64,000 nucleotides of DNA from an uncultured Candidatus Saccharibacteria bacterium (GTDB lineage: Bacteria > Patescibacteriota > CAZHWT01), in NCBI GenBank assembly GCA_964554805.1, contig CAZKPX010000002.1, positions 49,889-113,888 of the forward strand. Direction: 5' to 3'. The position numbers and the translations under genes were made by a program. The notes under the pieces were generated by a model. The model made no database searches, was not told the DNA's origin, and saw only the letters and a program-made list of their open reading frames with translations. Of the stretch, positions 36,016-62,227 are shown piece by piece (positions within the stretch are counted from its first letter, which is position 1; each line of letters starts with the position of its first letter).

Positions 36016-36102
36016 GCCAGGGTGGTGGAATGGTATACACGACGGACTTAAAATCCGTTGCCCTCATACGGCTTAAGGGTTCGAGTCCCTTCCCTGGTAC
36101 CA
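36016..36102 (+). tRNA. tRNA-Leu (anticodon UAA), type II with a long variable arm
   Basis: Acceptor GCCAGGG/CCCTGGT. Anticodon stem acgga/tccgt with loop cTTAAaa. 16-nt variable arm. T-arm aaggg-ttcgagt-ccctt. Encoded CCA at 36100-36102. Confidence 0.8.
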
Positions 36103-36248
36103 CTCAGCACCATTATTTGATTGTGTTTGGTAGAATATAGGTAATACTTTTGGCTTCAACTTTAGAGTTTGTCTTAAAGATCAAATAAATTTGGCTGCAA
36201 CTCGTCCAGCCAAAAAATTTACAAATGAATATTTATTAATTTAATTTT

Positions 36249-36322
36249 TTGGCTGATAGTGAAATGGCATCACGACAGGTTTTGGTCCTGTTATTCTAGG
36301 TTCGAATCCTGGTCGGCCAGCC
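36249..36322 (+). tRNA. tRNA-Gln (anticodon UUG)
   Basis: Acceptor TGGCTGA/TCGGCCA with the U1-A72 pair typical of bacterial tRNA-Gln. D-stem gtga/tcac. Anticodon stem acagg/cctgt with loop ttTTGgt. T-arm ctagg-ttcgaat-cctgg. Discriminator G, encoded CCA. Confidence 0.8.
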
Positions 36323-36381
36323 AAAAGAAAGCGCCTCAGCGAAAGCTGGGGCTTTTTCTTTGGTTGTTCGACATTGGATTT
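36317..36381 (+). repeat. Direct repeat copy 1 (tRNA-Gln 3' end plus terminator plus 30 nt); about 90% identical to 40116..40181
   Basis: cagccaaaagaaagcgcctcagcgaaagctggggctttttctttggttgttcgacattggattt aligns with 40116-40181 (3 mismatches and 1 indel). Confidence 0.6.
36332..36360 (+). terminator. Terminator hairpin after tRNA-Gln
   Basis: gcctcagc-GAAA-gctggggc, then TTTTTCTTT. Confidence 0.6.
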
Positions 36382-36426
36382 CGAACCTCTGCGAGGCAGT
36401 AAGGGGCGTCGTGCGAGTGATTTATC

Positions 36427-36451
36427 GCGACATCCTGGTCGGCCAGCCAAA
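36427..36451 (+). repeat. Partial duplicate of the tRNA-Gln 3' end (20/20 nt identical to 36305-36324)
   Basis: atcctggtcggccagccaaa is repeated about 125 bp downstream of the tRNA, an att-like signature. Confidence 0.55.
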
Positions 36452-40115: not shown

Positions 40116-40181
40116 CAGCCAAAAGAAAGCGCCTCAGCGAAAGCTGGGGGCTTTTCCTTTTTGTTGTTCGACCTTGGATTT
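40116..40181 (+). repeat. Direct repeat copy 2 of the tRNA-Gln 3' flank/terminator segment
   Basis: See 36317..36381. Includes the same terminator hairpin (gcctcagc-gaaa-gctggggg). Confidence 0.6.
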
Positions 40182-40190
40182 TGGGTGCAG

Positions 40191-40755
40191 TCAACTAAAG
40201 CGGAACAACGTTGCGCGCAGATAGGCTTGAGGGCTTCTAAATACGTGTGCTTGGTTACACCGGGCCATCCATTCATTAAGGAATACCTGCAGTCTGGCCG
40301 TAGTCATCCCTACATGAGAGAGGATGCGCCGTGCACGTCGCTTCATTCGACTCCACAGATTCTCAATACGATTGGTGCCGGTAAAGTGTCCTTTAGAATG
40401 GTTCCAGATCTCCCGACCATAGCCCATCCATTCAATGCCTGCATAATAGCCTGCTGTGTCAGTAACGACCAAGGTACTTGGGGTGACATGCCTCTCCAGA
40501 AAACCTTGAACCAGATCTGCATCTGGTGCTGAAGGCAATATCTCCACTTTTATCCGACCACTACCTTGCTCAATGGCGCCAATAACAATTGCTTGTCTGC
40601 CGTAGCGTTCTTTGCCAAACCATGACTCATCCAGCTCCACCACCCCATCTAGCTGGTCACGGTCAGGCTCTTGAGGTAGGTGCTCCCTAAAGCGCGTATA
40701 CCAGCGGTTAACCGTTAGTAACCCCGGGGGTTGCTTTCTAGCTGAACCTCTGAGT
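40191..40755 (-). mobile_element. IS1595-family (ISXO2-like) transposase remnant, N-terminally truncated (pseudogene)
   Basis: VELDESWFGKERYGRQAIVIGAIEQG...TDTAGYY...HS.GHFTGTNRIENLWSRMKRR matches the DDE_Tnp_IS1595 domain (VEVDETY.GGK...). The reading frame is open upstream to a stop at ~40755 and encodes only a partial HTH (NRWYTRFREHL). No zinc-ribbon N-terminus and no ATG start. Confidence 0.65.
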
Positions 40756-40922: not shown

Positions 40923-40988
40923 TTAGCACTGGCCAACCTTTCCAGGCCATTTATCTCAGATAGCCGCGTTAGCACTTTATGGAAACTT
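40923..40988 (+). repeat. Composite ~65-bp intergenic element, copy A: two TTAGCACT(C/T)T half-sites flanking a TATCTCAGATA core, second half-site extended as TTAGCACTTTATGGAAA
   Basis: Read directly. Member of a 5-copy family (40.9, 42.2, 46.7, 47.7 and 52.7 kb), all in the same orientation. Confidence 0.55.
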
Positions 40989-42227: not shown

Positions 42228-42294
42228 TTAGCACTCTCCCCTGTTCTTAAGGTGATTATCAGAGATAAGTTGGTTAGCACTCCATGGAAATTTT
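42228..42294 (+). repeat. Composite intergenic element, copy B (ATTAGCACTCTCCCC...TTATCAGAGATAA...TTAGCACTCCATGGAAATTTTG)
   Basis: Same architecture as copy A. Lies upstream of the 42375 gene. Confidence 0.55.
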
Positions 42295-43050: not shown

Positions 43051-43548
43051 TTAGGGCGATCGATTTTGGAGTTGCTCGATTTTTAGATCGAGGAGTGCGA
43101 GGTAGTTGCTGCACACACTCCGCCAGGCTTGCAACTCAGCCACAGCTTCCTCGGTCGATAAACTATTTATGATGAGGTTTATCTGATCAGGGCTCCGGAC
43201 GGCTGGAGTTAACGTATCCCCCGTATCTGTTGCTGGAAGCCACAATGATGATTCAGGTAGATCTAGGGCTTCAGCGAGATTAGCGACAATCTCCATAGAA
43301 GGAGATCTGGTAAAATTTCGCTCTAAGCGGCTAAGGTAACCCGCAGACACATGAGAAATAACTGCCAGGTCTGAAATAGTCATCCTTCGCTCTAGTCTTT
43401 TCTCCCTTACAATATCTCCGTTAAAAACACGGTAACTGTGCAAACCCCCGGCTCGGAGATGGCTATTTGCCGGCAACTCTTTGCGGCCTCTTTTCATGAT
43501 TACTCTCCCTGCAGGACAAACGAACTGATGACTAACGGGATTATACAC
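43051..43548 (-). CDS. XRE-family HTH transcriptional regulator
   Basis: RLERRMTISDLAVISHVSAGYLSRLERNFTRSPSMEIVANLAEALDL is a classic HTH_XRE helix-turn-helix with the ...LS..ER motif. Confidence 0.6.
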   Translation of the reverse strand: MYNPVSHQFVCPAGRVIMKRGRKELPANSHLRAGGLHSYRVFNGDIVREKRLERRMTISDLAVISHVSAGYLSRLERNFTRSPSMEIVANLAEALDLPESSLWLPATDTGDTLTPAVRSPDQINLIINSLSTEEAVAELQAWRSVCSNYLALLDLKIEQLQNRSP

Positions 43549-43631
43549 GTCTTATAGTAAATATCAAGTGAATAGCCCTTTTAGATGCTACGAAGGGTAA
43601 AGATAGTTGATGTCTCTGATATAATGGGCGA

Positions 43632-44273
43632 ATGACTGATGAATTAAAAGAAGTTTTGATTAGCATTGCCACGGAGCGCATACCGAACGACGACCCTTCG
43701 CATGATATTGAACACACGCTTCGCGTTTTGGCAAATGCGTTGCGGATTGCGGATGAGGAGCAAGCTGATATTGATGTAATTATTCCAGCAGCCTTGTTTC
43801 ACGATATTATTACTTACCCCAAGAATGATCCGAGGTCGCTGAATGCTCAGGAAGAAAGTGCGCAGATGGCTCACAGTATTTTGACAAACTTGCCGGAGTA
43901 TCCGGTAGAAAAAATACCAGCTGTGATGGAGGCTATTCTGTTGTGCTCTTTTACCAAAGGGGTTGTGCCGGAACTGCTTGAGGCAAAGATTTTACAGGAT
44001 GCTGATGGACTAGAGGCTACCGGAGCCATTGCAGTTATGCGAACCTATGCATCGACCGGACAAATGCAGCGACCTTTTTATCATCCGACTGATCCGTTTG
44101 GTGTTAATAGACAAACAGATAGTAAGGCCTATGCCCTTGATTTGTTCTTTGATCGATTATTGAAGGTGGAGGGTAGAATGCATACGCAATCTGCTAAGCA
44201 CATAGCTCAGCGCCGAACAGTCTTTTTGTATGAATTCCTAGAAGAATTTCGGTTGGAGCTTGAAGGCAAGTAG
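43632..44273 (+). CDS. HD-domain metal-dependent phosphohydrolase
   Basis: His...HD...D metal-ligand pattern: HDIEHTLRV, ALFHDII and LQDADGLEA. Confidence 0.6.
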   Translation: MTDELKEVLISIATERIPNDDPSHDIEHTLRVLANALRIADEEQADIDVIIPAALFHDIITYPKNDPRSLNAQEESAQMAHSILTNLPEYPVEKIPAVMEAILLCSFTKGVVPELLEAKILQDADGLEATGAIAVMRTYASTGQMQRPFYHPTDPFGVNRQTDSKAYALDLFFDRLLKVEGRMHTQSAKHIAQRRTVFLYEFLEEFRLELEGK

Positions 44274-44308
44274 GTTTCTTAATATACTGGCATGTTACTA
44301 TTTAAGCT

Positions 44309-44827
44309 ATGAATAATCCATATGATTTTCAAAATGTGGTGGCGGCTAAGTTGTTGATTAAGAAGGGTGATCAGATATTACTGTTGCGTGAACCGTTGAC
44401 CAATGAGTGGATGCCGGGGAGGTTGGGATTGCCTGGAGGGAAGCCGGTGCTTCATGAAAGTTTGTCTGAGGCATTGCAGCGAAAGATAAAGACTGAAGTC
44501 GGCATCGCTATTGATATTAAGGGCTTGGTTAAGGTCATTGATATTATTATGCCTGAGAAAACTGTCTATCATTTTGTTATTGCGGCTGAGTATGTTGCGG
44601 GTGATATTGATGTGGAAGCGATTGAAGCTGATGATATGCGCTGGTTTACGATCGACGAAGTCAGTAAGCTGTTAAAAAATGATTTTACTGAGTACTACAA
44701 CGACGAAGTAATTAAAGATTATTTAGCAGGAATGCTGAACGCAATCCCTATGAGTGTTTTTGTTGAGCAAGATAATAGAACAGATGAAATAATGGATTGG
44801 ATGGTGAAGGGTCAAAGCATCCGATAA
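44309..44827 (+). CDS. NUDIX hydrolase (divergent Nudix box)
   Basis: GGKPVLHESLSEALQRKIKTEVGI fits GX5EX7REUXEEXGU, with K and T at two of the usual Glu positions. Confidence 0.55.
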   Translation: MNNPYDFQNVVAAKLLIKKGDQILLLREPLTNEWMPGRLGLPGGKPVLHESLSEALQRKIKTEVGIAIDIKGLVKVIDIIMPEKTVYHFVIAAEYVAGDIDVEAIEADDMRWFTIDEVSKLLKNDFTEYYNDEVIKDYLAGMLNAIPMSVFVEQDNRTDEIMDWMVKGQSIR

Positions 44828-44898
44828 AGCGGGGATTAATACAAGTTTGCGGTATTGGTTTATATCAACTAAGGCAAGCTGTCTGATATACTAGTTTA

Positions 44899-45357
44899 GT
44901 GCATGCAGGTCAAGATTATATTGGTGTCATAACTCCTTTCTTTTGTCACAATGGTCGTGGTCAGTTTTTGTTTTATCGTCGAGGTAAAGAGGCTAAGGAT
45001 GAGTTGGGAGTGTGGGATTGTAGCGGCGGTTCTATGCAGTTTGGTGAGCAGCCAGTTGAGACGGTGTTGCGAAAACTTAAATCTCAGTACGGTGTCGAGC
45101 CGGTGAATTTTGAAGAATTGCCCGCGCATTCTGTTTTGGTAGATATAGATGGAATTCCAAATCATTGGCTGGCTATTCCATTCATCGTGCAAGTCGATCC
45201 CGAGCAGGTACGAATTGGTGAGCCACATAAAATGGATGAGATAGGATGGTTTGATTTGGACGCATTGCCTGAGCCAATCCATCCTGGAGCAGCTGATATT
45301 TTGCGAACATACAGTGAGCGATTTTCTGCTCATACTAAAAAACAAACAGCGAATTGA
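44899..45357 (+). CDS. NUDIX-fold protein (degenerate Nudix box)
   Basis: GGSMQFGEQPVETVLRKLKSQYGV. The fold pattern is retained but the catalytic Glu residues are partly replaced, so it may be non-catalytic or act on unusual substrates. Confidence 0.45.
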   Translation: MHAGQDYIGVITPFFCHNGRGQFLFYRRGKEAKDELGVWDCSGGSMQFGEQPVETVLRKLKSQYGVEPVNFEELPAHSVLVDIDGIPNHWLAIPFIVQVDPEQVRIGEPHKMDEIGWFDLDALPEPIHPGAADILRTYSERFSAHTKKQTAN

Positions 45358-45458
45358 GCTGTACCGTGGTTAAATATTTTACTAGTATAGGGAATGCTAG
45401 GCAGTGTGTAGCTAGATGGGCATTCGTGCTCATTGCTGAGCAGAATGCCCATCTAGGC

Positions 45459-45959
45459 TTAGATCCAAGCTTGATCCAGGAGGTAATCTGGGAGCTTGAA
45501 TTCTGAATGGTTCCAAGCTACCTGCGGGCTGGTCCATTCTAGGATGCTTGCCCCGGTCGGGTCATAATTCTTAAGGCCTGGAGTGCTCCACCAGTAGGGG
45601 CTCTTTTGCGCGAGAACCGCAAAAGTAATGGCAAAAACAGAACTTGGCTTCTCACTATTCCCCGGATTGATTCCTGGGTCAACATAGAGTTCCAAAGTTG
45701 CTGTAACAAAGGTCGCTACCTCGGATTCAAACACAAAATAGTCCCTGGTTTCATCTCCCCACTTGGGATTGAAGTGAATATACACCTTTGCAATGCCGGT
45801 CAACTTGTATTGACTGCGCAGCTGATTGATTCGTCGCTCAACCTTTTGGCTGGCTAATGCCGTCAGGTCATTCGGCTTGGTGTTCACTTTGTCTATGCTC
45901 CTTAGCTCGGTGCGACTGCGCAACTGCGCAGTAATCTTCCCCGAATGGAAGATGATCAC
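45459..45959 (-). CDS. Hypothetical protein
   Basis: 166 aa, no recognisable motif. It is the only minus-strand gene inside the NUDIX cluster. Confidence 0.35.
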   Translation of the reverse strand: MIIFHSGKITAQLRSRTELRSIDKVNTKPNDLTALASQKVERRINQLRSQYKLTGIAKVYIHFNPKWGDETRDYFVFESEVATFVTATLELYVDPGINPGNSEKPSSVFAITFAVLAQKSPYWWSTPGLKNYDPTGASILEWTSPQVAWNHSEFKLPDYLLDQAWI

Positions 45960-46006
45960 TCGACATTATCACTAGAAATGGATACTGTCAATAAATACTA
46001 CAGCAG

Positions 46007-46642
46007 TTGAAGCCTGCTCTGCGGTACTTCTGTTATAATCATCTTATGAAAATAAACTTTGAGTTGCCTAGTGATGGGTTGATGCATCGATATTGTTTTA
46101 GTTGTTTGAAGGAAGGGGCCAAGCAGGTAAAGATTGATGGGATAACTCAGTATCATTGCGATGCATGTGGGCAGGATAATGGACGAGCGATTTACTTTGA
46201 TAAGCATAAGGTATGGCTCGATGATCAGCGAGAACTGTGGCATGAGTCGGCTGGGGTGTTTGTTCGTCGAGCAGATGGGAAGTTTTTGTTTTTTCAAAGA
46301 ACCGAGTACCCATTATATTTAACCGTGCCATCTGGTCATGTAGATCGAGGCGAAGATCCATCAGTGGCAGCTGCTCGTGAGTTGGTCGAAGAAACTGGCA
46401 TCATTGGTAGTCCTGTATTGATTGGAACTTCTGATATTGTTGGAGATTCATGTAGTGCCGGTGCGGATGCTCATAAGTGGCATGTTTTCTTATTGAAGCT
46501 TGATGGTCCGAATAGGCAAGTAGAAATACTCGAAGAGGGTGAAAAGGCGCTATGGTTGACATTGGCAGAAGCAAAAGGTCAAGGCATGGTGTTTGTTGTA
46601 GAAAAGGCTGCGGATCTGTTTGGGAAACAGCTTGAATCTTAG
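46007..46642 (+). CDS. NUDIX hydrolase with an N-terminal zinc ribbon (NudC/NADH-pyrophosphatase-like architecture)
   Basis: CFSCLKEG...HCDACGQ zinc ribbon, then the canonical Nudix box GHVDRGEDPSVAAARELVEETGI. Alternative start at ATG 46036. Confidence 0.6.
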   Translation: MKPALRYFCYNHLMKINFELPSDGLMHRYCFSCLKEGAKQVKIDGITQYHCDACGQDNGRAIYFDKHKVWLDDQRELWHESAGVFVRRADGKFLFFQRTEYPLYLTVPSGHVDRGEDPSVAAARELVEETGIIGSPVLIGTSDIVGDSCSAGADAHKWHVFLLKLDGPNRQVEILEEGEKALWLTLAEAKGQGMVFVVEKAADLFGKQLES

Positions 46643-46664
46643 GCACTTTCCATATCAAAATTGA

Positions 46665-46730
46665 TTAGCACTCTACCCTGTTTGAGATCTTGCTATCTCA
46701 GATAAATGATTTAGCACTCTATGGAAAGTT
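46665..46730 (+). repeat. Composite intergenic element, copy C (GATTAGCACTCTACCC...TATCTCAGATAA...TTAGCACTCTATGGAAAGTTG)
   Basis: Between two NUDIX genes. A sigma70-like promoter (ttgtct...tatataat) follows immediately. Confidence 0.55.
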
Positions 46731-46789
46731 GTCTTGTATTCAAAGTTATCCCATGGTGTATATAATGAGGCTTATTAGGGAGTTTTTGA

Positions 46790-47323
46790 ATGCCACATAT
46801 ACATATTGAACCTGGTCAACATGATCATACGGTGAGCGCTTATATTGTTCGAGTTGATGGTGATGAACCTCGACTGCTTCTGCACCGGCATAAGAAGCTG
46901 GGGGTGTATATGCAGATTGGTGGGCATATTGAGCTGGATGAAACACCTTGGCAAGCTATCTCGCATGAACTGCGTGAGGAGACTGGCTATGAGTTGGATC
47001 AGCTGGAAATATTGCAGCCCAAAGAGCGACTGTTAAAACTGTCTGGTGTGGACTCTCATCCGTTGCCGTTTAATCACAATACTCATGCGGTGGGAGGTAG
47101 CGATCATTTTCACACTGATATCACTTATGCATTTGTGGCGACCGAAGATTCACGGATTGATCTGGAAGAGGGCGAGTCAAGCGATATTAAATTATTTACC
47201 AAGGCTGAGTTGCAGGCTCTTTCTGCAGAAGAAATTTATGAAAATGTTCGCGAGCTGGGCGTGTTTGTACTAGAGGTGATTTTGGATGCCTGGAATAGGA
47301 TTCCAGCCACCAATCTTCGGTAG
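46790..47323 (+). CDS. NUDIX hydrolase
   Basis: Canonical Nudix box GGHIELDETPWQAISHELREETGYE. Confidence 0.65.
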   Translation: MPHIHIEPGQHDHTVSAYIVRVDGDEPRLLLHRHKKLGVYMQIGGHIELDETPWQAISHELREETGYELDQLEILQPKERLLKLSGVDSHPLPFNHNTHAVGGSDHFHTDITYAFVATEDSRIDLEEGESSDIKLFTKAELQALSAEEIYENVRELGVFVLEVILDAWNRIPATNLR

Positions 47324-47530: not shown

Positions 47531-47710
47531 ATGTTTTCGCGCAAATTTCTTATTTACCTTGGTGTGATTGTTGGGTCGGGATTGGGTAGTCTGGTGCCAA
47601 AGTTGTGGGGGGCGGGGTTGTTATCCAGTTGGGGGATCCTGTTTAGTAGTGTCGGTGCTTTTGTGGGATTTTATGTGGGATATAAACTGGGAGAAATGAT
47701 AGAAGGTTAG
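47531..47710 (+). CDS. Small hydrophobic protein (59 aa, 2 TM), below the ORF-track size cut-off
   Basis: ATG 47531 ... TAG 47708-47710 encodes MFSRKFLIYLGVIVGSGLGSLVPKLWGAGLLSSWGILFSSVGAFVGFYVGYKLGEMIEG. Gly-zipper-like helices. Repeat copy D begins 4 nt after the stop. Confidence 0.35.
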   Translation: MFSRKFLIYLGVIVGSGLGSLVPKLWGAGLLSSWGILFSSVGAFVGFYVGYKLGEMIEG

Positions 47711-47713: not shown

Positions 47714-47781
47714 TTAGTACTCTGCCCCACTTTGGCTTTTGTATATCTTAGACAAGAGGGTTAGCAGTCTATGGAAATTTT
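47714..47781 (+). repeat. Composite intergenic element, copy D (GTTAGTACTCTGCCCC...TATATCTTAGACAA...TTAGCAGTCTATGGAAATTTTG)
   Basis: Most diverged copy. Lies about 330 bp from the 3' end of the giant minus-strand gene. Confidence 0.5.
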
Positions 47782-48115: not shown

Positions 48116-51100
48116 TTAATGATCTATGTAGCGTCTGCTAAACTGCAAATCTACAGTTCTTTGGTATGAATCTGAGCTTTTTTGAGGACTATCCTTGGCT
48201 TGGACAGCCAGCGCCGTGAAATAACGCAAGAAATTAAGTTCGAAATCGTAGCTTCCAGATAGATGATGCATTGCTTCGTGGATATAAACTTCAAGTAGTT
48301 GCTTCGGATTATTAATCAGTGATTGATTTACTTCTATTTGTGCAGCATCATTTTCGATTCCGAGATAAAGACCTGCAAATGGGTTTAAACTACTGCCGAC
48401 AGAAATATCCTGTTCTGTCATTTGCAATAATTGGTCGATGCGCTGTTCAAGAACATGATTTTCTGCCTGCATATTTCTCGAACGGTACTCGCTATCTACC
48501 TCTGAATCTTCATATTGTTCTCTATGCCAAGCGCGACCAAGATATTCTCTTTTGTCTGGATCTAGGAGCATATCCTTAAAGTAGTCGACTATGACTTGAT
48601 TGACTTGACGCGCATACTGCCCTACTTGATGCTTTTCCTCAGCGGTTAAGTCAATTTGAATTCCTCTAAGTTCTTGGCAGAAATCTTGTGTGGTATAGAC
48701 AAACTTTGATAGCTCTCTAGTTAAATCCTCTGGTAGCCTGATGGCGTTGGACCGTTCGAGGTGGACTTTGAGAGACTCTTCCATCTGAGCATTTTCGGAG
48801 CTAAGACTGGCAATTGATAATATTGCGTTTCTGCCGAAGACTTCATAGTACATTTGTCTCCACATCTCTTTATTGTTCTCTATTCCGGTTAATGAATTTA
48901 CGTTTTCATCTAACAGTTCATATTCGAGGTACTCAACTTGAGGATTGAGTTTTGCCTGAGTGAGAATATGCTTAACTACGGTGCGATCTATTGTTTGAGT
49001 GAGATAGTCTGATGCGACCAGATAGAACTCTGCGGGGTCGATAGCATTTCGTTCACGAGTGTTTATTGTGGATTTTTGCAAGTTGTAGCCCAACATTAAC
49101 GGTGAGGATCTATGCAAACTATCTTTGCCATTAGGTACAAGAAGGTTTTTTTCGAATATTTGGCCCGGTCTATCTAATAGTACTGATACTGCTAAGCTAG
49201 AATGGATCTCTGTAGCTGGCGATATGATGTATTTATCAAGCCCTGCATACCCGGCAGCATCGGTAATCCTGGGGTCTAAAACATCTAGCCACTGCTTCCA
49301 GATTTGCAGTTTTTGAGATAATTGATGAGAATTGCTCTGCTCTGTGATGTTTGGTGACAAATATTGAAGCTGGCTTCGCTGTTCTGGATTTAAAGATTGA
49401 AGCTGTGTGTCGAATAATGAAAATGTTGTTTGAGAGCCAGTTCTTGGCTCATCTTGCCATTGCATATTGTAGCCTAGCATGTCAAACTCCTGCAGCTGTT
49501 GGGTTTCATGATTCATGGCTGATTGCTTGTGACTAGTTGGCTTGGCAGACCAATTACGGGAGCGTAGCTCTAGGTGTATGCCCTGCAGAGTAGCCGAAGC
49601 GGCGAGCATTTTTAAGCCTTCGCCGAATTTGCCTGCGTCGGCATCTGATTTAGTTGTTCTACCGAGATCCGTTAGATAGGGCGTGGTGTAGCCATCTCCC
49701 TGATCCAGTATTGATACACTTATGATGTTCCAGCTTTTGTCTAAGCTTGCAAGTTGTTGACTATCAACTTCCTGAATATGTCCTTCACCATTTGTAACTT
49801 TATATTGTATGGTTGGAAATTGGCCATGGTTGGCATCGATATGATTTTGGATGGCATCTAGCATGATTCTTCTTGGGTCTGCCCAGACCTTGCCCCCATA
49901 ATCCAGGGTGTTATTGGCTGCAATGTACTCTTCGCCTTGATTAATCTCGGTTAATTGATTTGAAAACGGTTCAGATTCATCGCTTAGCTTGAGAGCTTCG
50001 AGCCTTCCATTTAGCATTAGTAGTTCCCCGACAATCTCGAGGCCTACATCGTCATTTACTTGGCCTGAATCTATGACTGGATTACCGTTATGCACGGAGA
50101 CGGTATAGTCCTGATCTGCTAGTGGGGTAAACGAATTGCCCGAAGCCGTTCTGGTAATGGCTACTTTGTGTTGGGATTCAGAAGTGGTTATGGAGAAAAT
50201 AGACGTATGGTTGACTTGCACTGGCAGAGGAACAAAGTATAGAGGCAGACGAGCTTCATTGGGATCTATATATGGAATCGGCTCGCCTGGCGTGAGCAGT
50301 ATTGGTAGCGATTCTTGGTGGGTTGACGAGGCGTCTACAAATTCTAATTGTTGGTTTAACGACAGAAGTTTGCCGGCGAAGTAAAATGGCGCGGTGGGAA
50401 ACTGTTTTCCTATTGCTAAATCAAGTGCCTGTGGGTTGATATTGGCGAAAAATTGTCGTGCATGCATCAGTCTGTCGCTGAACAGTTTAATATTTTCGAT
50501 TGAATTTAGAGTTTTTGATGCTTGAACTAATTCGATAACCGTGACAACTAAATTGTCATGTTGCTCTAGTTCATTTTTATAGCCTATTTGAGGCGACTCA
50601 CCCGCTTCTCTTGAAGCAATTTGGTCTGACAGATTGATTTCTAGTAACTCTGGGTGACGCTCGATTAGTGCCCGTGCAACAAACGTTCCTAGCCTAAGCT
50701 GTAGCTTGTCAGAAAATGACACGTCCATAGATTCCACTTGATTGGCTAACAGAACCACGTCCATAGCTCTGGCATATGAGCTGGTAGGTTGACTATTGAC
50801 ATCAACCATAACTGCATGTTCGTTCATATTGTATGAAAATGGATAATCATCAACAAACATCTCGCTTTGGGTATTGTTAGGTGACTGCAAAAAAATAGCT
50901 TGATCGAGAACATCTGTCACGTCATATGATGTATATTTTTGAGCTATTAGTCGTATCTCAGTTTCTAGGTTTGGGTCAATTGGTTGATAGGTGCCAGTCT
51001 CTCCATTTAGTAATTCGAGAACTTGATCAATGTGGGCAGGTTCGTTGTATATAGACTTGAGTAGTTCTAGTAGGTTGTGTATGTTTGGCCGAATATCAAT

Positions 51101-52549
51101 TAGCTGATAGCCGCGCTGCTCCATTATTCGTCTTTCTTCGAATGTAGCACTGATAGGACAAAATAGTGTCTTGCCTGGAATGTAATTATAAGTGGAGGTA
51201 ATGGCTTGCTGCCACAAATCTTTTTGCGACTGACTGAAGTTTTGCCCATCCGGAAGATTGTTGGCTTCGATTGTGTATGATAGTGGGCTATCTGTATTGA
51301 AGGAGCTGACCAAAAGCTGTAGTGAGGCTAGGTCGTCAATGTGCTCGATAGCCTCATTGACTACTTGCTCTAAGGCAGAATATTGCACGGTGCTGCGATC
51401 GCGACCAGATATGGCCCATTTATTCTTGATGTTATAACTCCAAAGTTGATCGGTTCGGTTTTCTTCGACAAGCAGGCCTTTAACATAGACTCGTCCCGGT
51501 GGTATATTCTCTTCTATTAGGCGACAGCTGGTATCGAGCTTTTCTAATGATAATGAATGGTTGTACTCTAGTACGTACTTTCCTAGTCCTTGATCGTTTT
51601 GCCTGAGATCTAGAATTTGTCTGACATTATGCCATTCTTCCTCTGACATGGTAGCCGAGCTTAAGTCAACTAATGTTCGTGAGCCAAGCATCTTGGAATC
51701 TGTGCCATGCTTTGGTCTCCGAGTGGTGCTTTTGCCTTCTAAGGTTAATAAACCGTTATTTTGTTGTGGACCAAGCCACCAGGATTCGTCGGAGTTTTCG
51801 GATGCGATGCGGATATCGGCTCCGGTGCGATTGAGTTGAGCAACGCTCATTTTTAAACCTTCGCCCAATCCACCGCGTTTGCCAGGATCCTCTTTTTTAG
51901 TAGAGGCTCCAATCATGCTAAGTAATTTGTGATCGAAGCCTGCTCCTTGATCTGCTACTAAATAGCCAACAACTTGCCACTCCTCTGGCTCCAAAACAAC
52001 TCTGTCATACTCTACAAATTTTGATTGACTGCCATTGCGTAATTTTAGCTTTATCGAGGGGGGCTTATAGGCAGCATCAGCTAATTTGGCACGTAGATCC
52101 TCTATGTAGTCGCGATTACTGACTCTTTGCTGGTATATCTTGTCAGGCCAGTCTACGATGCGAGCTAGAGTGTCAAAAGTTCGAAGCTGTTCTTCTGGGT
52201 CTGAAGATAGTTGCAGTTTGGCAAGCTGTTCAAGGATGATGTCGTGCGCTGGATGGCTAGGGTCGAATTCAGTGGCGTCGATAAGCTCTAAGCGGGCCAT
52301 TCCATAGGAGGTGGTATTAGCATCGAGGTGATTCTGTAAGATATCTACGATAGACTGAGACGGTCGCCACGTTTTCTCTCCATAATTTAGATCAATGCCG
52401 GTGGAATGTTCAATAGAAGATATCGGTGAACGCGGTTGATAAATAGGTAAGCTAGAAGAGGTTTGTGGTGGTGTTCTATCCGAATCTTTTGGATGATTAT
52501 TTTCTGTTTGAGTTGAATCTGAGTAACCTGAAGAGTGTTCTGGTGCCAT
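48116..52549 (-). CDS. 1477-aa protein with two tandem GHKL (Bergerat-fold, Hsp90/MutL/MORC/sacsin-type) ATPase modules and a C-terminal HExxH motif; function unknown
   Basis: Each module has a motif I (N-box), a G1 box (motif II, DxGxG) and a G2 box (motif III, GxxGxG). Module 1: motif I VDILQNHLDAN (aa 66-78, nt 52322-52348), G1 DQGAG (aa 200-204), G2 GGLGEGLKM (aa 226-234, nt 51848-51874). Module 2: motif I DAIQNHIDAN (aa 898-907), G1 DQGDG (aa 949-953), G2 GKFGEGLKM (aa 973-981, nt 49607-49633; checked by back-translation). C-terminal HEAMHH at aa 1424-1429 (nt 48266-48280). Ser/Thr/Pro-rich disordered N-terminus. Uninterrupted 4.4-kb ORF. Confidence 0.6.
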   Translation of the reverse strand: MAPEHSSGYSDSTQTENNHPKDSDRTPPQTSSSLPIYQPRSPISSIEHSTGIDLNYGEKTWRPSQSIVDILQNHLDANTTSYGMARLELIDATEFDPSHPAHDIILEQLAKLQLSSDPEEQLRTFDTLARIVDWPDKIYQQRVSNRDYIEDLRAKLADAAYKPPSIKLKLRNGSQSKFVEYDRVVLEPEEWQVVGYLVADQGAGFDHKLLSMIGASTKKEDPGKRGGLGEGLKMSVAQLNRTGADIRIASENSDESWWLGPQQNNGLLTLEGKSTTRRPKHGTDSKMLGSRTLVDLSSATMSEEEWHNVRQILDLRQNDQGLGKYVLEYNHSLSLEKLDTSCRLIEENIPPGRVYVKGLLVEENRTDQLWSYNIKNKWAISGRDRSTVQYSALEQVVNEAIEHIDDLASLQLLVSSFNTDSPLSYTIEANNLPDGQNFSQSQKDLWQQAITSTYNYIPGKTLFCPISATFEERRIMEQRGYQLIDIRPNIHNLLELLKSIYNEPAHIDQVLELLNGETGTYQPIDPNLETEIRLIAQKYTSYDVTDVLDQAIFLQSPNNTQSEMFVDDYPFSYNMNEHAVMVDVNSQPTSSYARAMDVVLLANQVESMDVSFSDKLQLRLGTFVARALIERHPELLEINLSDQIASREAGESPQIGYKNELEQHDNLVVTVIELVQASKTLNSIENIKLFSDRLMHARQFFANINPQALDLAIGKQFPTAPFYFAGKLLSLNQQLEFVDASSTHQESLPILLTPGEPIPYIDPNEARLPLYFVPLPVQVNHTSIFSITTSESQHKVAITRTASGNSFTPLADQDYTVSVHNGNPVIDSGQVNDDVGLEIVGELLMLNGRLEALKLSDESEPFSNQLTEINQGEEYIAANNTLDYGGKVWADPRRIMLDAIQNHIDANHGQFPTIQYKVTNGEGHIQEVDSQQLASLDKSWNIISVSILDQGDGYTTPYLTDLGRTTKSDADAGKFGEGLKMLAASATLQGIHLELRSRNWSAKPTSHKQSAMNHETQQLQEFDMLGYNMQWQDEPRTGSQTTFSLFDTQLQSLNPEQRSQLQYLSPNITEQSNSHQLSQKLQIWKQWLDVLDPRITDAAGYAGLDKYIISPATEIHSSLAVSVLLDRPGQIFEKNLLVPNGKDSLHRSSPLMLGYNLQKSTINTRERNAIDPAEFYLVASDYLTQTIDRTVVKHILTQAKLNPQVEYLEYELLDENVNSLTGIENNKEMWRQMYYEVFGRNAILSIASLSSENAQMEESLKVHLERSNAIRLPEDLTRELSKFVYTTQDFCQELRGIQIDLTAEEKHQVGQYARQVNQVIVDYFKDMLLDPDKREYLGRAWHREQYEDSEVDSEYRSRNMQAENHVLEQRIDQLLQMTEQDISVGSSLNPFAGLYLGIENDAAQIEVNQSLINNPKQLLEVYIHEAMHHLSGSYDFELNFLRYFTALAVQAKDSPQKSSDSYQRTVDLQFSRRYIDH

Positions 52550-52685: not shown

Positions 52686-52752
52686 TTTGCACTCTCCATA
52701 CTCTACGGGCTTCTTATCAGAGATACTACTATTGGCACTCTATGGAAAATTG
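52686..52752 (+). repeat. Composite intergenic element, copy E (TTTGCACTCTCCATAC...TTATCAGAGATAC...TTGGCACTCTATGGAAAATTGG), preceded by an extra partial half-site TAGCGTTTCTATGG (52669-52682)
   Basis: Sits in the divergent region between the giant gene start (52549, minus) and the NlpC/P60-like gene (52824, plus). Confidence 0.55.
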
Positions 52753-52823: not shown

Positions 52824-53624
52824 ATGGATATGACACCTGAAATAAAACATGCAAACAATCTGGCCTGGAAGAGAGTGCATGATTATCAGCGACTGAAAAT
52901 TGGTGGCCAAGAAGTGGGCTGTCCGTATGCAATAAATTTGCTGTCCCGCAATGTAATCTCATTAATGACGCAGGCGGGTACTGAAGAATCGTTGATTTCC
53001 TCAGTTACTGAACTGTATAAGCAGCGGCAGGTTCCGTATGGTTGGTATCGGGGGAAAGGGACTCCGGAAGAAATTGTGGCGGCGGCGGAAGCGCTGGCTG
53101 AGGTTCATGGCTATAATCTGGCCAACTCGACGGCGGAGGGGATAGTGGAATTTATGAAGCTGTTTGGGTTGGGGGTTGATTGTTCCGGATTTGTCTATCA
53201 TGTTCTGGATTTCGCTTGGTCAGCGGTGGTGGGGCACGATCGGTTTGTGGCTGGTTTTGCCTGGCCCAGTGATAATCAGAAGGGTGTCAATTATGCTGGG
53301 ACTCAATTTTTAGCTGCTAATTCAAGCCTGGTTGAACCAAATGATGTGCAGCCACTTGATCTGGTTTGCATCCATCAAGACCAAGTTTATTCTCATATTG
53401 GGTTAATTTTAAAAGATGATCAGGGGTGGCAGATAGTTCAATCTAATATCAGCAATTTGCCGACTGGGCTGAATGTCTCAGGATTGCAGATTAAGGATGG
53501 TGCTGTAAATTTTGAGTACAAACCAGCTATTGGCAGGGCATGGAATGATTATAAAGATTCTACTATAGAGTTTAGAAGATTGAGTCTGGTCAATGAGCTC
53601 AAGCCTCAATCTGATGGCAAGTGA
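52824..53624 (+). CDS. NlpC/P60-family (papain-fold) cysteine peptidase/amidase-like protein, no signal peptide
   Basis: Catalytic Cys block GVDCSGFVYHVLDF and His block DLVCIH...YSHIGLIL match the NlpC/P60 motifs (DCSGFV ... DLVFF...H.GIY). The N-terminus is hydrophilic, so the protein is presumably cytoplasmic. Confidence 0.5.
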   Translation: MDMTPEIKHANNLAWKRVHDYQRLKIGGQEVGCPYAINLLSRNVISLMTQAGTEESLISSVTELYKQRQVPYGWYRGKGTPEEIVAAAEALAEVHGYNLANSTAEGIVEFMKLFGLGVDCSGFVYHVLDFAWSAVVGHDRFVAGFAWPSDNQKGVNYAGTQFLAANSSLVEPNDVQPLDLVCIHQDQVYSHIGLILKDDQGWQIVQSNISNLPTGLNVSGLQIKDGAVNFEYKPAIGRAWNDYKDSTIEFRRLSLVNELKPQSDGK

Positions 53625-53816
53625 TTGATAGTTGCAACTGAAAGGGGCGGATATGGATGAAGTTTTAGATAGACAAGGTTTTGATTTTAAAAGCAGTCAG
53701 ACTATGCAGGGCAAAGAACTTCATGATTTTTTGTTCCGGTTGTACGATTATGCGACAGCATTGCCGGCAAAATACAATCTGGCGATACAGATAGCGATAA
53801 CTAATTTTTAAGTCTG

Positions 53817-54065
53817 GTGATAATTGAGAAATTTTTTGACAGAATTGGCCGGGCTGAAATCAGTCGGGCGACCAGGGAGGCTGATGATGAGAATATTGAT
53901 GTCAGCAGGTCGTTGAATGAAGCTCATCGGCGGATTGATCTACTGCGCCATCGAACTTCTCTAATCTCTCAGCAAAATAATTTTGATGATAGTCTGGATT
54001 ATGTTGGCCGGCAATTGGCGGTTGAATGGCGTAGGAGGGATGCTAACCAGCAATCGTCAAATTGA
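53817..54065 (+). CDS. Hypothetical small protein (82 aa), preceded by another 52-aa ORF (53653..53811)
   Basis: Charged, Arg-rich; no motif recognised. Confidence 0.3.
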   Translation: MIIEKFFDRIGRAEISRATREADDENIDVSRSLNEAHRRIDLLRHRTSLISQQNNFDDSLDYVGRQLAVEWRRRDANQQSSN

Positions 54066-54123
54066 TATCTGTCTGGAGTCTGGATATTGGTGCTGGCTGT
54101 ATTGATGTGTATAATGCTTAACT

Positions 54124-54483
54124 ATGAGCGCACCATTGAGTCCATTTTATAGAGCGGGTGAGTTGGTTTTTATTTCTGGTCAGGTTGGATCGGATATTGA
54201 GACTAAGGTGATTCCTGAAGATTTTGAATCACAAGCGCTGAATGTGTTTCGCAATCTTGAACAAGTTTTGGCGTCGGCTGAAGTTGATAAGTCGCAGATT
54301 GTTAAAACGACTGTTTTTCTGACCGATATGTCTTTTTACAGTAAAATGAATGAGTTGTATGTTGAGTTTTTTGGTGATCATAAACCAGCCAGATCAGCTA
54401 TTGGCGTAGCAGCCTTACCGAAATTTCCTGGTGATCCGAGAGTTTTTATAGAGATAGAAGCTGTGGCGTATATTTCGAGTTAA
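54124..54483 (+). CDS. RidA/YjgF-family reactive-intermediate deaminase
   Basis: YRAGELVFISGQVG...PARSAIGVAALP...IEIEAVA are the Rid-family signature blocks. 119 aa. Confidence 0.8.
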   Translation: MSAPLSPFYRAGELVFISGQVGSDIETKVIPEDFESQALNVFRNLEQVLASAEVDKSQIVKTTVFLTDMSFYSKMNELYVEFFGDHKPARSAIGVAALPKFPGDPRVFIEIEAVAYISS

Positions 54484-54603
54484 ATCACTGACTGACAAAT
54501 CCATCTATAACCATAATACATTGTGCTCGTATTTGCTCTGCTGTGATACTATAGGCGTAGTTGTCTAGCAGTTTTTGCAGACGCGTTGGATAGGAGTGAG
54601 ACA

Positions 54604-55530
54604 ATGATGGGGTTGATTGGGCGTAGGTTATTGGCCACCTTTAACCGTCTTGATGATTGGATGTGGCGAGTGCCGGAGAAGGTCACAGCTCAGAGCACAG
54701 ACCCTGTCTCTGATCCAGTATGGATTCTGAGGACCAGGAAGGTGTATCGAGCTATGGTTGAGCGAGTCTTTGGCTACGCTATCATCTGGTTGTTTGGCTT
54801 CGGTCGTGTGCGTCCACTTATGAAAAGTGGACAAGTCAACGTGTATGGTATCGAGAGATATTACGCGGCAATGGCTCAGGGCAAGGGAGTCATGCTGATT
54901 CCAAATCACGGGACTCTTGTAGAACCAGTCTTGTTAGACGGAATTTTTTGGAGAAAAATGCTTTTCAATCGAAGCTATTTTCCATTCCAAACTCCTGATG
55001 ATAGGCTATTTCCAGCCCAACTAAAAAACCTTTTTTACCGTTACGGACAATGCATTCCGGTAATTCGTGAGCGCATGAATAGCGACATGAATAAAGTTGC
55101 CGGACGGCGTATGATCCAGGTCCTGCAGGCTGGTTATTGTCTGATTGTGTTCGGCGAAGGAGGGCGTACTCGAAAGTACACAGAGCGCAATCAAAATTTG
55201 CTCAAAGGCGAGCTTTTGCCTAATGGCCGTCGCAGACAAATTTCGGAGATCAAGCGATTTGTTGGCAATACAGCCGGTGAGTCGGGCTGTCTTGTTATGA
55301 CAGTCTATATTGATTTGCCTGACGAGTGGTCATGGCTATCGATTGAAGATGCGCTTCGTCTATTGCGCAATGGTGATATGTCCGGAGTTAGTATCTACTT
55401 CGGCCCCGAGGCATTCTCTGTTCCTTGGTCAGAAAATTACCAAGAACAGAAAGTCATCATGAAAGAGGTTTCAGACAAAGTTCAAGAACACTTGCTGTTC
55501 CCAAGCAAGTTTGATAGCTACGCTGAATAA
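54604..55530 (+). CDS. Lysophospholipid acyltransferase-family protein (PlsC-like)
   Basis: Motif I-like MLIPNHGTLVEPVLLD (H-x4-E/D) and motif III-like VFGEGGRTR. Start placed at the ATG after AGGAG (the track uses TTG 54586). Confidence 0.45.
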   Translation: MMGLIGRRLLATFNRLDDWMWRVPEKVTAQSTDPVSDPVWILRTRKVYRAMVERVFGYAIIWLFGFGRVRPLMKSGQVNVYGIERYYAAMAQGKGVMLIPNHGTLVEPVLLDGIFWRKMLFNRSYFPFQTPDDRLFPAQLKNLFYRYGQCIPVIRERMNSDMNKVAGRRMIQVLQAGYCLIVFGEGGRTRKYTERNQNLLKGELLPNGRRRQISEIKRFVGNTAGESGCLVMTVYIDLPDEWSWLSIEDALRLLRNGDMSGVSIYFGPEAFSVPWSENYQEQKVIMKEVSDKVQEHLLFPSKFDSYAE

Positions 55531-55746
55531 TCTGCCTAGCTGAGAGAAGAATACAGGGCTCCCCATTCTGGGGAGCCTATTTTGTTATCTATTTTTTGAA
55601 AAATATCACAGTGAATGTCTCTGATATGGCTGCTCGTTGACAGGAGTGTCTATAATATTTTCAATACTATAACCCATAGGACTTATTATGAACGCTACGG
55701 CTAATACCCAGGAACGGGTGGTGTGCATCAAGACATTAAATAGTTT

Positions 55747-56175
55747 GTGGTATCTATTAAGAAAGTTATTTTGCTTAATCTGGTTACCATGGGCGTCTAC
55801 TCTATTTATTGGTTTTATAAAAATTGGACAGCGATTCAGTTGGCTGAACCGACTAAGATCTCACCAGTATGGCGCACTATCTTCTCTGAATTGTTTTACT
55901 GGTCGCTACATCGTCGAGCGTTTGCCTCCCTGCTCTATTCGTTTATTCAGCTATTAAAGGCCATGACTTTTGTAAATGAGCACTCTAAGGCTGAGGATAA
56001 GGGAAATCTGGCCACCGGATGGGAGACTTTTTGGATTGTGCTCGGGGTTGTGTCTAGTGCCTTAGTAATGGTCGGTGTAATAATTGCCATAATTCTAATG
56101 TCACTACCTCAGTTGCAGGGGTATTTTGATGAGGTAGCTGAGCAAGGAATTCTTGTTGAGGATTTAACCAAATAG
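55747..56175 (+). CDS. Membrane protein of unknown function
   Basis: 142 aa, 3-4 hydrophobic helices. Confidence 0.4.
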   Translation: MVSIKKVILLNLVTMGVYSIYWFYKNWTAIQLAEPTKISPVWRTIFSELFYWSLHRRAFASLLYSFIQLLKAMTFVNEHSKAEDKGNLATGWETFWIVLGVVSSALVMVGVIIAIILMSLPQLQGYFDEVAEQGILVEDLTK

Positions 56176-56425
56176 GCTAAAAGCTGTACAGAAGATGCGG
56201 ATTCTCGATTTGAAGGCTTGGACCCTGCTAATCAAGAAGATGTTGATGCTTACAATGCTGATGCAGATGTCTGTGATACCATAGTTGAGATCAGTAACAC
56301 GAAGCTGTTGAGGAATATCAGAACCTACTTGACGGTGAATCTGTTCAGCTGACAGACCGATTAAGAGCTATTTCAATATAGTGGCACAATGCCGGGTATT
56401 TTTATTCTGATATAGATTAGCCAAT

Positions 56426-56453
56426 AAAAAGAACCGCCTAGGCGGATCTTTTT
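56426..56453. terminator. Bidirectional terminator between convergent genes; palindrome CCGCCTAGGCGG flanked by A5/T5
   Basis: aaaaa-gaaccgcctaggcggatc-ttttt. The same 12-mer palindrome is the loop core of the REP-like element at 63380-63423. Confidence 0.55.
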
Positions 56454-56500
56454 ATATAGGTAAATGTAATCTTTGTGCAGCGCAGATTACTTATTTAACA

Positions 56501-56998
56501 TTAAGCGGCAGGTTGATCTACCTTTAATTCGCTACCATGAACAATCACGGCCCATAAGATAAAGATGTCGATGACGAACATCATGATTGACCAGAATGGA
56601 TATACGGGAACGAAAGCCATATTGATAACAGCGCTGGCTACAGCAACTAATACGGCGATAATACGGCCATACATATGACCATTGGCAAGTGAAGCTGCAG
56701 CTGTAAGAGCTATCAAGCCACCAATTATGTGTAGCCAGCCCCATGTGCTCGAGTCAAACATCCACACTGAGTTGGCTGTGACCATATAGAGGTCATTCTG
56801 AAAGAGAGCTACGAAGCCCGCTACCATATGTAATATTCCGACTAAGGCCAGCATTGTTGCTGCGAATCCAATCCAGCCTACCCAACCACTAACATTTGTT
56901 GTTTGGTTTGCCATACTATTTACTCCTTTATATTTGATAATAAATTCATTATGATTGCCTAATACTAGACTGTCAATATAGGTAATTGCTAATATCAA
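56501..56998 (-). CDS. Membrane protein of unknown function (4 TM)
   Basis: 165 aa, hydrophobic helices with Trp-rich loops. Confidence 0.4.
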   Translation of the reverse strand: MILAITYIDSLVLGNHNEFIIKYKGVNSMANQTTNVSGWVGWIGFAATMLALVGILHMVAGFVALFQNDLYMVTANSVWMFDSSTWGWLHIIGGLIALTAAASLANGHMYGRIIAVLVAVASAVINMAFVPVYPFWSIMMFVIDIFILWAVIVHGSELKVDQPAA

Positions 56999-57139
56999 GA
57001 TATGCTATATTACTAGTGTATATCTATTACATAATCCAGCGTTTATTATGCTTTATTTTTTACTATCACAATAATAAAAATGCGACTTCACTTTACAATG
57101 AAGTCGCATTCTTATTTACGTATAGGACATAGGTATTCT

Positions 57140-61144: not shown

Positions 61145-61597
61145 ATGGCAAAGCGCGAGCGATTTAAGATGTCTGTATCGGTGTTTTTGTTCTTGCGGGA
61201 TGGTAATAAGATATTGGTATTAAAGCGGGCTCAGACTGGTTGGATGGATGGGTATTTTAGTGTGCCGGCCGGTGCGATTGATGGTGACAAGACTTTGATT
61301 GAGGCGGTTGCCCGAGAGGCGCAGGAAGAAGTAGGGGTTATTGTTCAGGCTGCCGCTTTGAAATTGGTTCATACTATGCATTGCTTTACTGGGGAAGATG
61401 AGTGGCTAGGTCAGTTCTTTATGGCAGATAGCTGGCAAGGTGAGCCGCGGTTGGGAGAGCCTGAAAAACACAGTGACTTGCAATGGGTGGAGATGGATGC
61501 ACTTCCTGACGAGATGATTCCGTATGTTCGCCAGGCGATTGTGGGTAGTAGTCAGGGTGCGTACTATTCGACTTATCGAGATATTGAAAGTCATTAA
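61145..61597 (+). CDS. NUDIX hydrolase
   Basis: Nudix box AGAIDGDKTLIEAVAREAQEEVGV. Confidence 0.7.
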   Translation: MAKRERFKMSVSVFLFLRDGNKILVLKRAQTGWMDGYFSVPAGAIDGDKTLIEAVAREAQEEVGVIVQAAALKLVHTMHCFTGEDEWLGQFFMADSWQGEPRLGEPEKHSDLQWVEMDALPDEMIPYVRQAIVGSSQGAYYSTYRDIESH

Positions 61598-62202: not shown

Positions 62203-62227
62203 AGGCTAATACGTAAGAAAGGTTTTT

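Follow-up and report, generated by a model that had tools for sequence, protein, structure and literature searches.

A probable nucleotide house-cleaning neighbourhood of mutually distant Nudix genes and a YedJ/YpgQ-type HD phosphohydrolase gene in an uncultured Saccharibacteria bacterium

Results

The window analysed here is the whole 64,000-nucleotide stretch taken from contig CAZKPX010000002.1 of an uncultured Candidatus Saccharibacteria bacterium, and its positions 43051 to 47323 carry genes for an XRE-family regulator, an HD-domain phosphohydrolase and four Nudix proteins, which a reading of the letters alone (hereafter the sequence-only reading) had singled out as a cluster. All six genes lie where that reading had placed them, with Pfam scores above the gathering threshold, and the same locus was found in three Logan metagenome assemblies and one NCBI contig. 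Four of the five Nudix gene starts in the window fall inside 2.5 kb of its 64 kb, a clustering that is non-random (simulated P = 0.0012). The enzymes in question, with the fifth Nudix protein of the window, are:

43632..44273, plus strand: HD-domain phosphohydrolase, YedJ/YpgQ family (Pfam HD PF01966, 43 bits, 5.1e-11)
44309..44827, plus strand: NudA (Pfam NUDIX 42.6 bits, 7.4e-11; box RKIKTEVG)
44899..45357, plus strand: NudB (Pfam NUDIX 42.4 bits, 8.7e-11; box RKLKSQYG)
46007..46642, plus strand: zinc-ribbon Nudix (Pfam NUDIX 56.4 bits, 4.1e-15; canonical box RELVEETG; CFSC...CDAC ribbon)
46790..47323, plus strand: NudD (Pfam NUDIX 51.3 bits, 1.6e-13; near-canonical box HELREETG)
61145..61597, plus strand: fifth Nudix (Pfam NUDIX 2.5e-18; box REAQEEVG), adjoining a YdeI/OmdA gene as first reported

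The HD protein matches the PDB entries for YedJ (3gw7, 2.7e-36 over residues 19-212) and YpgQ (5dqv, 1.4e-12), and scores 163.7 bits against NCBIfam PRK10119 (NF007515), under the 286-bit equivalog cut-off of that model. YpgQ is a Mn-dependent pyrophosphohydrolase of (deoxy)nucleoside triphosphates, (d)NTPs, with Mn ligands H29, H58, D59 and D124 (PMC8177086). Residues H28, H57, D58, D123 and D125 of the HD protein are invariant among 17 homologs, with H28, H57, D58 and D123/D125 corresponding to the YpgQ metal ligands, and the protein is a probable Mn-dependent (d)NTP pyrophosphohydrolase in its turn. Its family is very large (3,463 representative clusters). Gene fusion provides no Rosetta-stone link between the two enzyme types: a Nudix domain is absent from all 10 long HD homologs, one of which is fused to a methyltransferase.

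Against the PF00293 gathering cut-off of 21.1 bits, the four Nudix proteins of the cluster score 42-56 bits and the protein at 61145 scores 67 bits. The boxes of the four cluster genes (GKPVLHESLSEALQRKIKTEVGI, GSMQFGEQPVETVLRKLKSQYGV, GHVDRGEDPSVAAARELVEETGI, GHIELDETPWQAISHELREETGY) contain the cores listed above; the canonical pattern GX5EX7REUXEEXGU is matched in full by the zinc-ribbon Nudix, nearly by NudD, and not by NudA or NudB. Pairwise identity among the five proteins is 21-36% over partial alignments, so that they are not recent paralogs and recent tandem duplication of one gene is ruled out; being mutually distant, the five are separate subfamilies, each with its own homolog set (sets obtained for NudA, NudB and the zinc-ribbon Nudix). 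NudD is closest in the PDB to 3f6a (2.4e-11) and 1jrk (3.2e-9), both uncharacterised structural-genomics Nudix proteins.

The NudA family is found mostly in the candidate phyla radiation (CPR), its closest genome-resolved members coming from metagenome-assembled genomes labelled Berkelbacteria, Saccharibacteria, Woesebacteria and other Patescibacteria. Near members have the box RKIKTE(V/I)G and distant ones RKxKEELG, with R58 and K59 invariant in 21 sequences, and a C-terminal extension (FTEYYN...QDNR...WM) is conserved and specific to the family. The AlphaFold (AF2) model of NudA has a generic MutT-like fold (predicted local distance difference test, pLDDT, 91.3). NudA, in which E50, R58 and an acidic position 63 are still present, may retain an altered activity.

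The box of NudB lacks all three glutamates of REx2EE. Its near clade (51-70% identity to the window protein, which is among the 10 sequences aligned) shares RKL(K/H/R)xQ(Y/F), mostly as RKLKSQYG, along with a conserved WDCSGG, and its sister clade retains the canonical RE(V/L)xEEYG. The sequence-only reading had read both non-canonical boxes correctly and had suggested altered or lost catalysis, as in sensor paralogs; decay is not the pattern seen, because the box is fixed in the near clade of NudB while the sister clade is canonical, and because R58 and K59 of NudA are invariant. The degenerate boxes of NudA and NudB are thus conserved, selected family traits. Judged by its sequence, NudB cannot use the canonical three-glutamate metal site, and it probably binds a diphosphate-bearing ligand through basic residues.

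In an alternative account, NudB, and possibly NudA, would handle isoprenoid diphosphates and not be nucleotide enzymes, whether as proteins resembling isopentenyl-diphosphate (IPP) isomerase or as prenyl-diphosphate binders or phosphohydrolases, and the cluster would be metabolically mixed. The AF2 model of NudB (pLDDT 92.5) finds AtNUDX1 as its best structural match by E-value (with RhNUDX1, a geranyl-diphosphate hydrolase) and E. coli IPP isomerase (IDI) by TM-score (0.80-0.82, 25% identity over the full length); weak IDI matches appear in the PDB and NCBIfam, and a polyprenyl synthase gene lies 1.3 kb from the NudA ortholog of one relative (L024). E. coli IDI has catalytic residues C67 and E116 and metal ligands H25, H32, H69 and E114. 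In a profile alignment of the NudB family with IDI (hhalign; probability 85%, 31% identity over 102 columns), RKLKSQYG stands opposite RRCRYELG of IDI, so that the two sequences share R-[RK]-x-[RK] where a canonical box has REx2. The same alignment puts C67 at a one-residue gap of NudB by G43, H69 against S45, E114 against N88 and E116 against W90, and leaves the N-terminal histidines of IDI outside, so the catalytic residues are absent despite the similar fold and basic helix, and NudB was rejected as an IPP isomerase. The identity of the IDI sequence in this alignment (UniProt Q46822) rests on its agreement with the established numbering of the residues. By sequence NudB is closer to the MutT/NUDIX protein 4dyw (5.7e-9) than to IDI (about 2e-3), and the canonical hydrolase box of its sister clade implies that the family derives from hydrolases. 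We consider the isoprenoid account quite unlikely.

A different departure from ordinary hydrolysis is unlikely too: HD, NudA and NudB would together comprise one active (d)NTP pyrophosphohydrolase and two CPR-restricted Nudix-fold proteins whose metal-binding glutamates have been stably replaced by lysines, in an RK-x-K helix convergent with that of IPP isomerase. These two would bind diphosphates without metal (for example to sense nucleotides or prenyl diphosphates, or as a chaperone or sequestering protein) or carry out new chemistry, all under XRE control. If true, this would add two new non-hydrolytic Nudix subfamilies specific to episymbiotic bacteria.

The zinc-ribbon Nudix probably starts at ATG 46046, giving 198 aa as called by gene callers and as in homologs, rather than the 211 aa of the open reading frame (ORF) from 46007. 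Its family (about 197-200 aa) occurs in CPR and in Actinomadura/Streptomyces; C17, C20 and C38 never vary in it, C41 hardly does, and the segment GDSCSAGADAHxWH is conserved. The ribbon had been described as resembling that of NudC; the CFSC...CDAC element is indeed present, but the likeness to NudC does not hold. The motif SQPWPFPxS downstream of the Nudix box confers NADH specificity in NudC, and it is not present in this protein. NudC structures (1vk6/5iw4) are absent among its 28 PDB matches, the NudC equivalog NF001299 of NCBIfam gives no match, and a NudC identity was ruled out. The ribbon itself is N-terminal, in a protein where neither a NudC-type N-terminal domain nor Pfam Zn_ribbon_NUD was detected.

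NudC removes NAD caps, and this precedent of a Nudix enzyme with a zinc motif raises the idea that RNA 5' ends are the substrates of the zinc-ribbon Nudix and its neighbours (decapping, deNADding or RppH-like processing), and that the cluster controls RNA turnover rather than the free nucleotide pool. The N-terminal C4 ribbon is conserved across the family, some members are labelled RNA-binding zinc-ribbon or RpoP-like by JGI annotators, and there is a weak NCBIfam RppH match (27 bits). We think this very unlikely: RppH and NudC equivalog scores are far under cut-off or absent, the best PDB sequence matches are to diadenosine tetraphosphate (Ap4A) hydrolase and ADP-ribose pyrophosphatase (ADPRase), and one ortholog adjoins a gene for NDK, an enzyme of the nucleotide pool.

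Orthologs of these genes are scattered. In relatives, the other families of the window are never found beside orthologs of NudA (11 loci, 10-kb flanks), NudB (2 loci) or the zinc-ribbon Nudix (2 loci), so that the genes do not amount to a conserved operon. Within 10 kb of the NudA orthologs of five species-representative genomes (L004-L008) there is neither another Nudix gene nor a YedJ-type HD gene, and closer NudA relatives have different neighbours. One NudB ortholog lies by an IS1595 gene and the other by MazG and resolvase genes; one zinc-ribbon ortholog lies by NDK and tRNA synthetase genes and the other by unrelated small genes. Dispersal of this kind, which the sequence-only reading had held would speak against a linked set, is largely what the orthologs display, but the adjacency of HD and Nudix genes still recurs. 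Around 43 metagenomic HD orthologs, eight Nudix ORFs lie within 3 kb (161 kb of sequence) and one farther out (203 kb), or 0.50 versus 0.05 per 10 kb, a roughly 10-fold enrichment (binomial P = 0.008) that is independent of the Nudix family concerned. Pfam confirms NUDIX in six HD-adjacent partners, one of which, in locus L058, is NudD-type (32% identity) and lies directly upstream of the HD ortholog. A further locus (L025) brings together NudA, a YfbR-type HD gene and another Nudix gene.

The theme also appears without orthology. In Candidatus Woesebacteria RIFCSPLOWO2_01_FULL_39_61 (positions 9977-17408 of locus L013), 7.5 kb hold genes for a NudA-like Nudix, an M48 peptidase, HD/DUF4202, RidA, Nudix, PEMT, Nudix, SDR and Zn_ribbon_Nudix, that is, four Nudix genes of different subfamilies, one of them zinc-ribbon. 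This is an independently assembled set that mirrors the gene theme of the window. Literature searches on Nudix clusters in CPR yielded nothing relevant.

Two further observations concern the relatives themselves. In the metagenome contigs L068 (3365-4444) and L073 (10642-11709), the gene that directly follows a YedJ-type HD ortholog, and touches or overlaps it, encodes a protein of 356-360 aa that begins with a Nudix domain and continues for about 220 aa without an assignment. In L030 (7684-8620), the degenerate-box NudB ortholog directly follows a MazG-like gene. Genes for a large serine recombinase and for an AAA_15/AAA_21 ATPase occur in the same region, and they suggest that this copy sits in a mobile or defence-island setting.

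The remaining genes and signals of the cluster are:

43051..43548, minus strand: XRE-family HTH regulator (Pfam HTH_3 8.6e-11), divergent from the HD gene
43611..43625, plus strand: predicted HD promoter core, with extended -10 TGATATAAT (43617-43625) 6 nt before ATG 43632
45459..45959, minus strand: ORF of 142-166 aa lying between NudB and the zinc-ribbon Nudix; gene callers report it in identical contigs
47531..47710, plus strand: small hydrophobic protein of 59 aa, called in identical contigs, with one hydrophobic segment, downstream of NudD

Gene callers place the XRE start at 43497 (148 aa; identical metagenome contigs), behind a sigma-70-like promoter on the minus strand (TTGATA-16-TATAAT, 43567-43540). 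The minus-strand ORF at 45459-45959, which the sequence-only reading had left out, splits the Nudix cluster; it has no Pfam, NCBIfam, PADLOC or PHROG match and zero hydrophobic segments. HD and NudA are separated by 35 nt and NudA and NudB by 71 nt, and the three probably form one transcription unit. The pattern TGnTATAAT occurs exactly 6 nt before the ATG of both the HD gene (43617-43634) and the zinc-ribbon Nudix gene (46031-46048), the latter with extended -10 TGTTATAAT (46031-46039). Such spacing predicts leaderless mRNAs and so suggests that both messages are leaderless; the -10 before ATG 46046 also supports the 198-aa start. NudD has its own predicted promoter (TTCAAA-16-TATAAT, 46739-46766) and a Shine-Dalgarno sequence. 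Read in this way, the cluster would be made up of four or more transcription units, with both strands in use.

Five copies of a 66-nt element, all intergenic and all on the plus strand, accompany the region:

40923..40988, plus strand: upstream of the 63-aa membrane protein gene (41194)
42228..42293, plus strand: upstream of the 171-aa membrane protein gene (42375)
46665..46730, plus strand: sole copy inside the Nudix cluster, ending a few nt before the NudD promoter
47714..47780, plus strand: downstream of the 59-aa gene, facing the 3' end of a gene for a 1477-aa protein
52686..52751, plus strand: upstream of a 266-aa gene (52824)

The claim that repeat copies are interleaved with the cluster is thus borne out by the copy at 46665-46730, while the other four lie outside. 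The element reads TTAGCACTC-N20-TATC(TC/AG)AGATA-N6-TTAGCACTCTATGGAAA, in which two direct TTAGCACTC repeats 46 nt apart flank a central palindrome, TATCTCAGATA, and the end is TATGGAAA; its 34-nt core pattern has 5 matches in the window versus 0.00 expected, whereas single TTAGCACTC 9-mers occur at chance level (21 versus 15.3 expected). Because its blocks are conserved, its spacers vary in sequence at fixed length and no RNA structure is found (RNAalifold, 0 pairs; no Rfam match in the region at gathering thresholds), the element fits a protein-binding DNA array and was rejected as a structured RNA. TTAGCACTC is the CIRCE half-site; CIRCE itself was rejected, the element having direct repeats 46 nt apart and not an inverted repeat. 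Nor is it a self-contained sigma-70 promoter, there being no conserved -10 after the TTAGCA blocks. No copy was found in 1.28 Mb of scanned sequence, nearly all of which comes from related loci, or in IMG/VR.

A box resembling an operator, TGTCTCTGATA (43611-43621), overlaps the HD -10 and differs by one mismatch from the palindrome of the element. A search for the palindromic box returned 13 matches versus 4.4 expected (0/100 shuffles reach 13), including two further intergenic sites at 55.6 and 56.3 kb.

Upstream of the cluster are genes for tRNA-Leu and tRNA-Gln (36016-36323). The 20-nt 3' end of tRNA-Gln recurs 126 nt further on (36306 and 36432; span 36306-36451), and a 44-nt terminator-like repeat occurs at 36318-36361 and 40116-40159, 3.8 kb apart, the second copy adjoining an IS1595 transposase fragment at 40191-40643. 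The duplication, the repeat and the fragment look like scars of insertions at a tRNA gene. Three proteins encoded just upstream of the cluster have 2, 6 and 4 hydrophobic 19-residue segments, which fits the membrane proteins they had been called. On the far side, a run of genes at 52824-63277 encodes NlpC/P60-like, RidA, acyltransferase, DUF4234, DUF7144, two YdeI/OmdA, HAD, GNAT, Nudix and histidine phosphatase proteins; the fifth Nudix sits in this same accessory stretch of small repair-type enzymes, and together with the Nudix/HD cluster the run looks like a damage-control gene neighbourhood.

Between the two, the 1477-aa protein (48116-52549, minus strand) has NHxDAN, DQGxG and GxGEGLKM motifs, each twice through an internal duplication (BLAST 2e-8 between halves), and a C-terminal HEAMHH (HExxH) metalloprotease-like motif; its residues 200-492 match phrog_6077. 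The label 'GHKL ATPase', earlier given to this protein, rests on those motifs, which are present; neither Pfam nor the PDB returns any match for the protein.

This giant neighbour entered a proposal that the cluster is a signal-clearing or anti-defence module, degrading a nucleotide-derived immune or signalling molecule (NAD-derived, cyclic oligonucleotide or Ap4A) as a defence accessory or anti-defence island, possibly with the 1477-aa protein. Several pyrophosphohydrolases do lie beside an XRE regulator and the giant protein, in which the GHKL-like motifs are duplicated and HExxH is C-terminal. The HD protein matches phrog_3921 as the giant matches phrog_6077, though these PHROG matches are generic; AAA_15/21, resolvase and MazG genes occur near one NudB ortholog, and SLFN_AlbA_2 and IS1595 genes near another. 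The PADLOC matches are weak ones to the Nudix candidate system PDC-S07 (NudA 3.1e-12), but they are generic and common to all five Nudix proteins; HTH is the only other PADLOC match, the HD protein, the 1477-aa protein and the ORFs of unassigned function giving none. IMG/VR holds no relatives of the NudA or NudB families and no close relatives of the 1477-aa protein, and no cyclase, TIR, SIR2, effector or other signal-generating genes occur in the neighbourhood. Across about 110 loci, the giant gene never stands beside an ortholog of NudA, NudB, the zinc-ribbon Nudix or the HD protein, so the co-occurrence check that the sequence-only reading had proposed came out negative. We rejected a defence or anti-defence system as an identification, and regard the proposal as highly improbable.

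Two features elsewhere in the window are recorded for completeness. A SAM-I/IV riboswitch (Rfam RF01725, 44.4 bits) lies at 12956-13093, directly upstream of an S-adenosylmethionine synthetase gene (13105-14250). GC skew is positive over nearly the whole window (1-64000), the cumulative skew rising to about 5, despite the minus-strand position of most genes between 14.8 and 39 kb.

Discussion

We think it probable, though well short of certain, that the cluster is a lineage-specific neighbourhood of nucleotide house-cleaning pyrophosphohydrolases in an accessory region, rather than a conserved operon or a module dedicated to signalling or defence. This is supported by the YedJ/YpgQ-type HD protein, the mutually distant Nudix families, the dispersed orthologs, the recurring HD-Nudix theme, the surrounding repair enzymes, the insertion scars, and the promoters with the operator-like box. 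The nucleotide-diphosphate theme of the sequence-only reading is plausible on similar grounds, namely the type of HD protein, the recurring adjacency and the Woesebacteria analogue.

CPR bacteria (Patescibacteria) are thought to depend on scavenged nucleotides. In the house-cleaning model, the HD protein, the zinc-ribbon Nudix and NudD would hydrolyse (d)NTPs or nucleoside diphosphates linked to another moiety (NDP-X) to nucleoside monophosphate and pyrophosphate or X-phosphate, so that the scavenged pool is sanitised and recycled; NudA would possibly keep an altered activity, and NudB would probably hold a diphosphate ligand by its basic residues. The layout would then consist of the divergent XRE gene, an HD-NudA-NudB unit, the opposite-strand gene, a separately and probably leaderlessly transcribed zinc-ribbon Nudix, and a unit of NudD with the small membrane protein. 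Repression of the HD operon by the XRE protein, by way of the TGTCTCTGATA box over the HD -10, is plausible, and the protein may also act at the palindrome in the five repeat elements.

This conclusion must be tempered by several points that weigh against it. The HD protein is by sequence a family-level relative of YedJ/YpgQ only and not an equivalog, and 0/5 Nudix proteins reach an NCBIfam equivalog cut-off. The HD-Nudix enrichment comprises nine events, some of them phylogenetically related (L068, L073). A second Nudix gene occurs in only 4 of about 26 loci, and the window, with four within 3 kb, is far denser than almost all relatives; because of this density, an account by pure accretion may underestimate functional coupling. 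The placing in an insertion-prone accessory region is drawn from local scars and the lack of synteny, and the binding of the XRE protein to the palindromic boxes of the five elements and the HD promoter, while plausible, is a predicted link.

So dense a set of NTP/NDP-X pyrophosphohydrolases, together with the reproducible HD-Nudix adjacency in these genomes, suggests that sanitising and recycling the pool is a trait under selection. All the enzymes belong to known kinds, and the cluster, which is unconserved, matches no described system; the locus establishes no new system and is otherwise ordinary. What is not routine is confined to the two CPR lysine-box subfamilies, the tendency of HD and Nudix genes to adjoin, and the local 66-nt element. 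The lysine-box subfamilies are small (about 150-170 aa), with models above pLDDT 90, and could reveal a non-hydrolytic use of the Nudix fold.

Comparison with known systems

E. coli NudC may share with the zinc-ribbon Nudix its combination of a CxxC...CxxC zinc element and a Nudix domain, but is about 257-260 aa long against about 198 aa; the window protein, without SQPWPFPxS and the NudC N-terminal domain, has its own GDSCSAGADAHxWH segment.

Degenerate-box Nudix regulators and sensors such as NrtR and the NUDT9-H domain of TRPM2 resemble NudA and NudB in that the catalytic glutamates are gone and the fold is kept; a degenerate Nudix box and loss of catalysis are discussed for TRPM2 NUDT9-H (PMC7555694). 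Unlike these, NudA and NudB are not fused to a DNA-binding or channel domain; the sole regulator is the separate XRE gene, and no sequence relationship of either to NrtR or NUDT9-H was detected with Pfam or NCBIfam. Among non-hydrolytic Nudix-fold proteins, IDI-1 is alike in its basic helix (RRCRYELG, against RKLKSQYG in NudB and RKIKTEVG in NudA) and gives the highest structural TM-score for the NudB model; the difference is that neither the catalytic Cys and Glu of IDI nor its metal ligands are kept in NudB, which has a canonical-box sister clade.

YpgQ and YedJ are the nearest counterparts of the window HD protein, with a strong sequence match, the H...HD...D ligands kept and a similar length, whereas the window protein falls below the equivalog cut-off and its kind preferentially adjoins Nudix genes in CPR contigs. 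The house-cleaning Nudix enzymes (MutT, the enzymes already named NudB, NudG and NudI, ADPRase and Ap4A hydrolase) share the Nudix fold and PF00293 with all four cluster proteins, and the best PDB matches of the window proteins are MutT-like, Ap4A hydrolase and ADPRase structures. The window set differs from them in that no protein is at the equivalog threshold of a characterised enzyme, in the lysine within the catalytic helix of the window NudA and NudB, and in having four unrelated subfamilies side by side.

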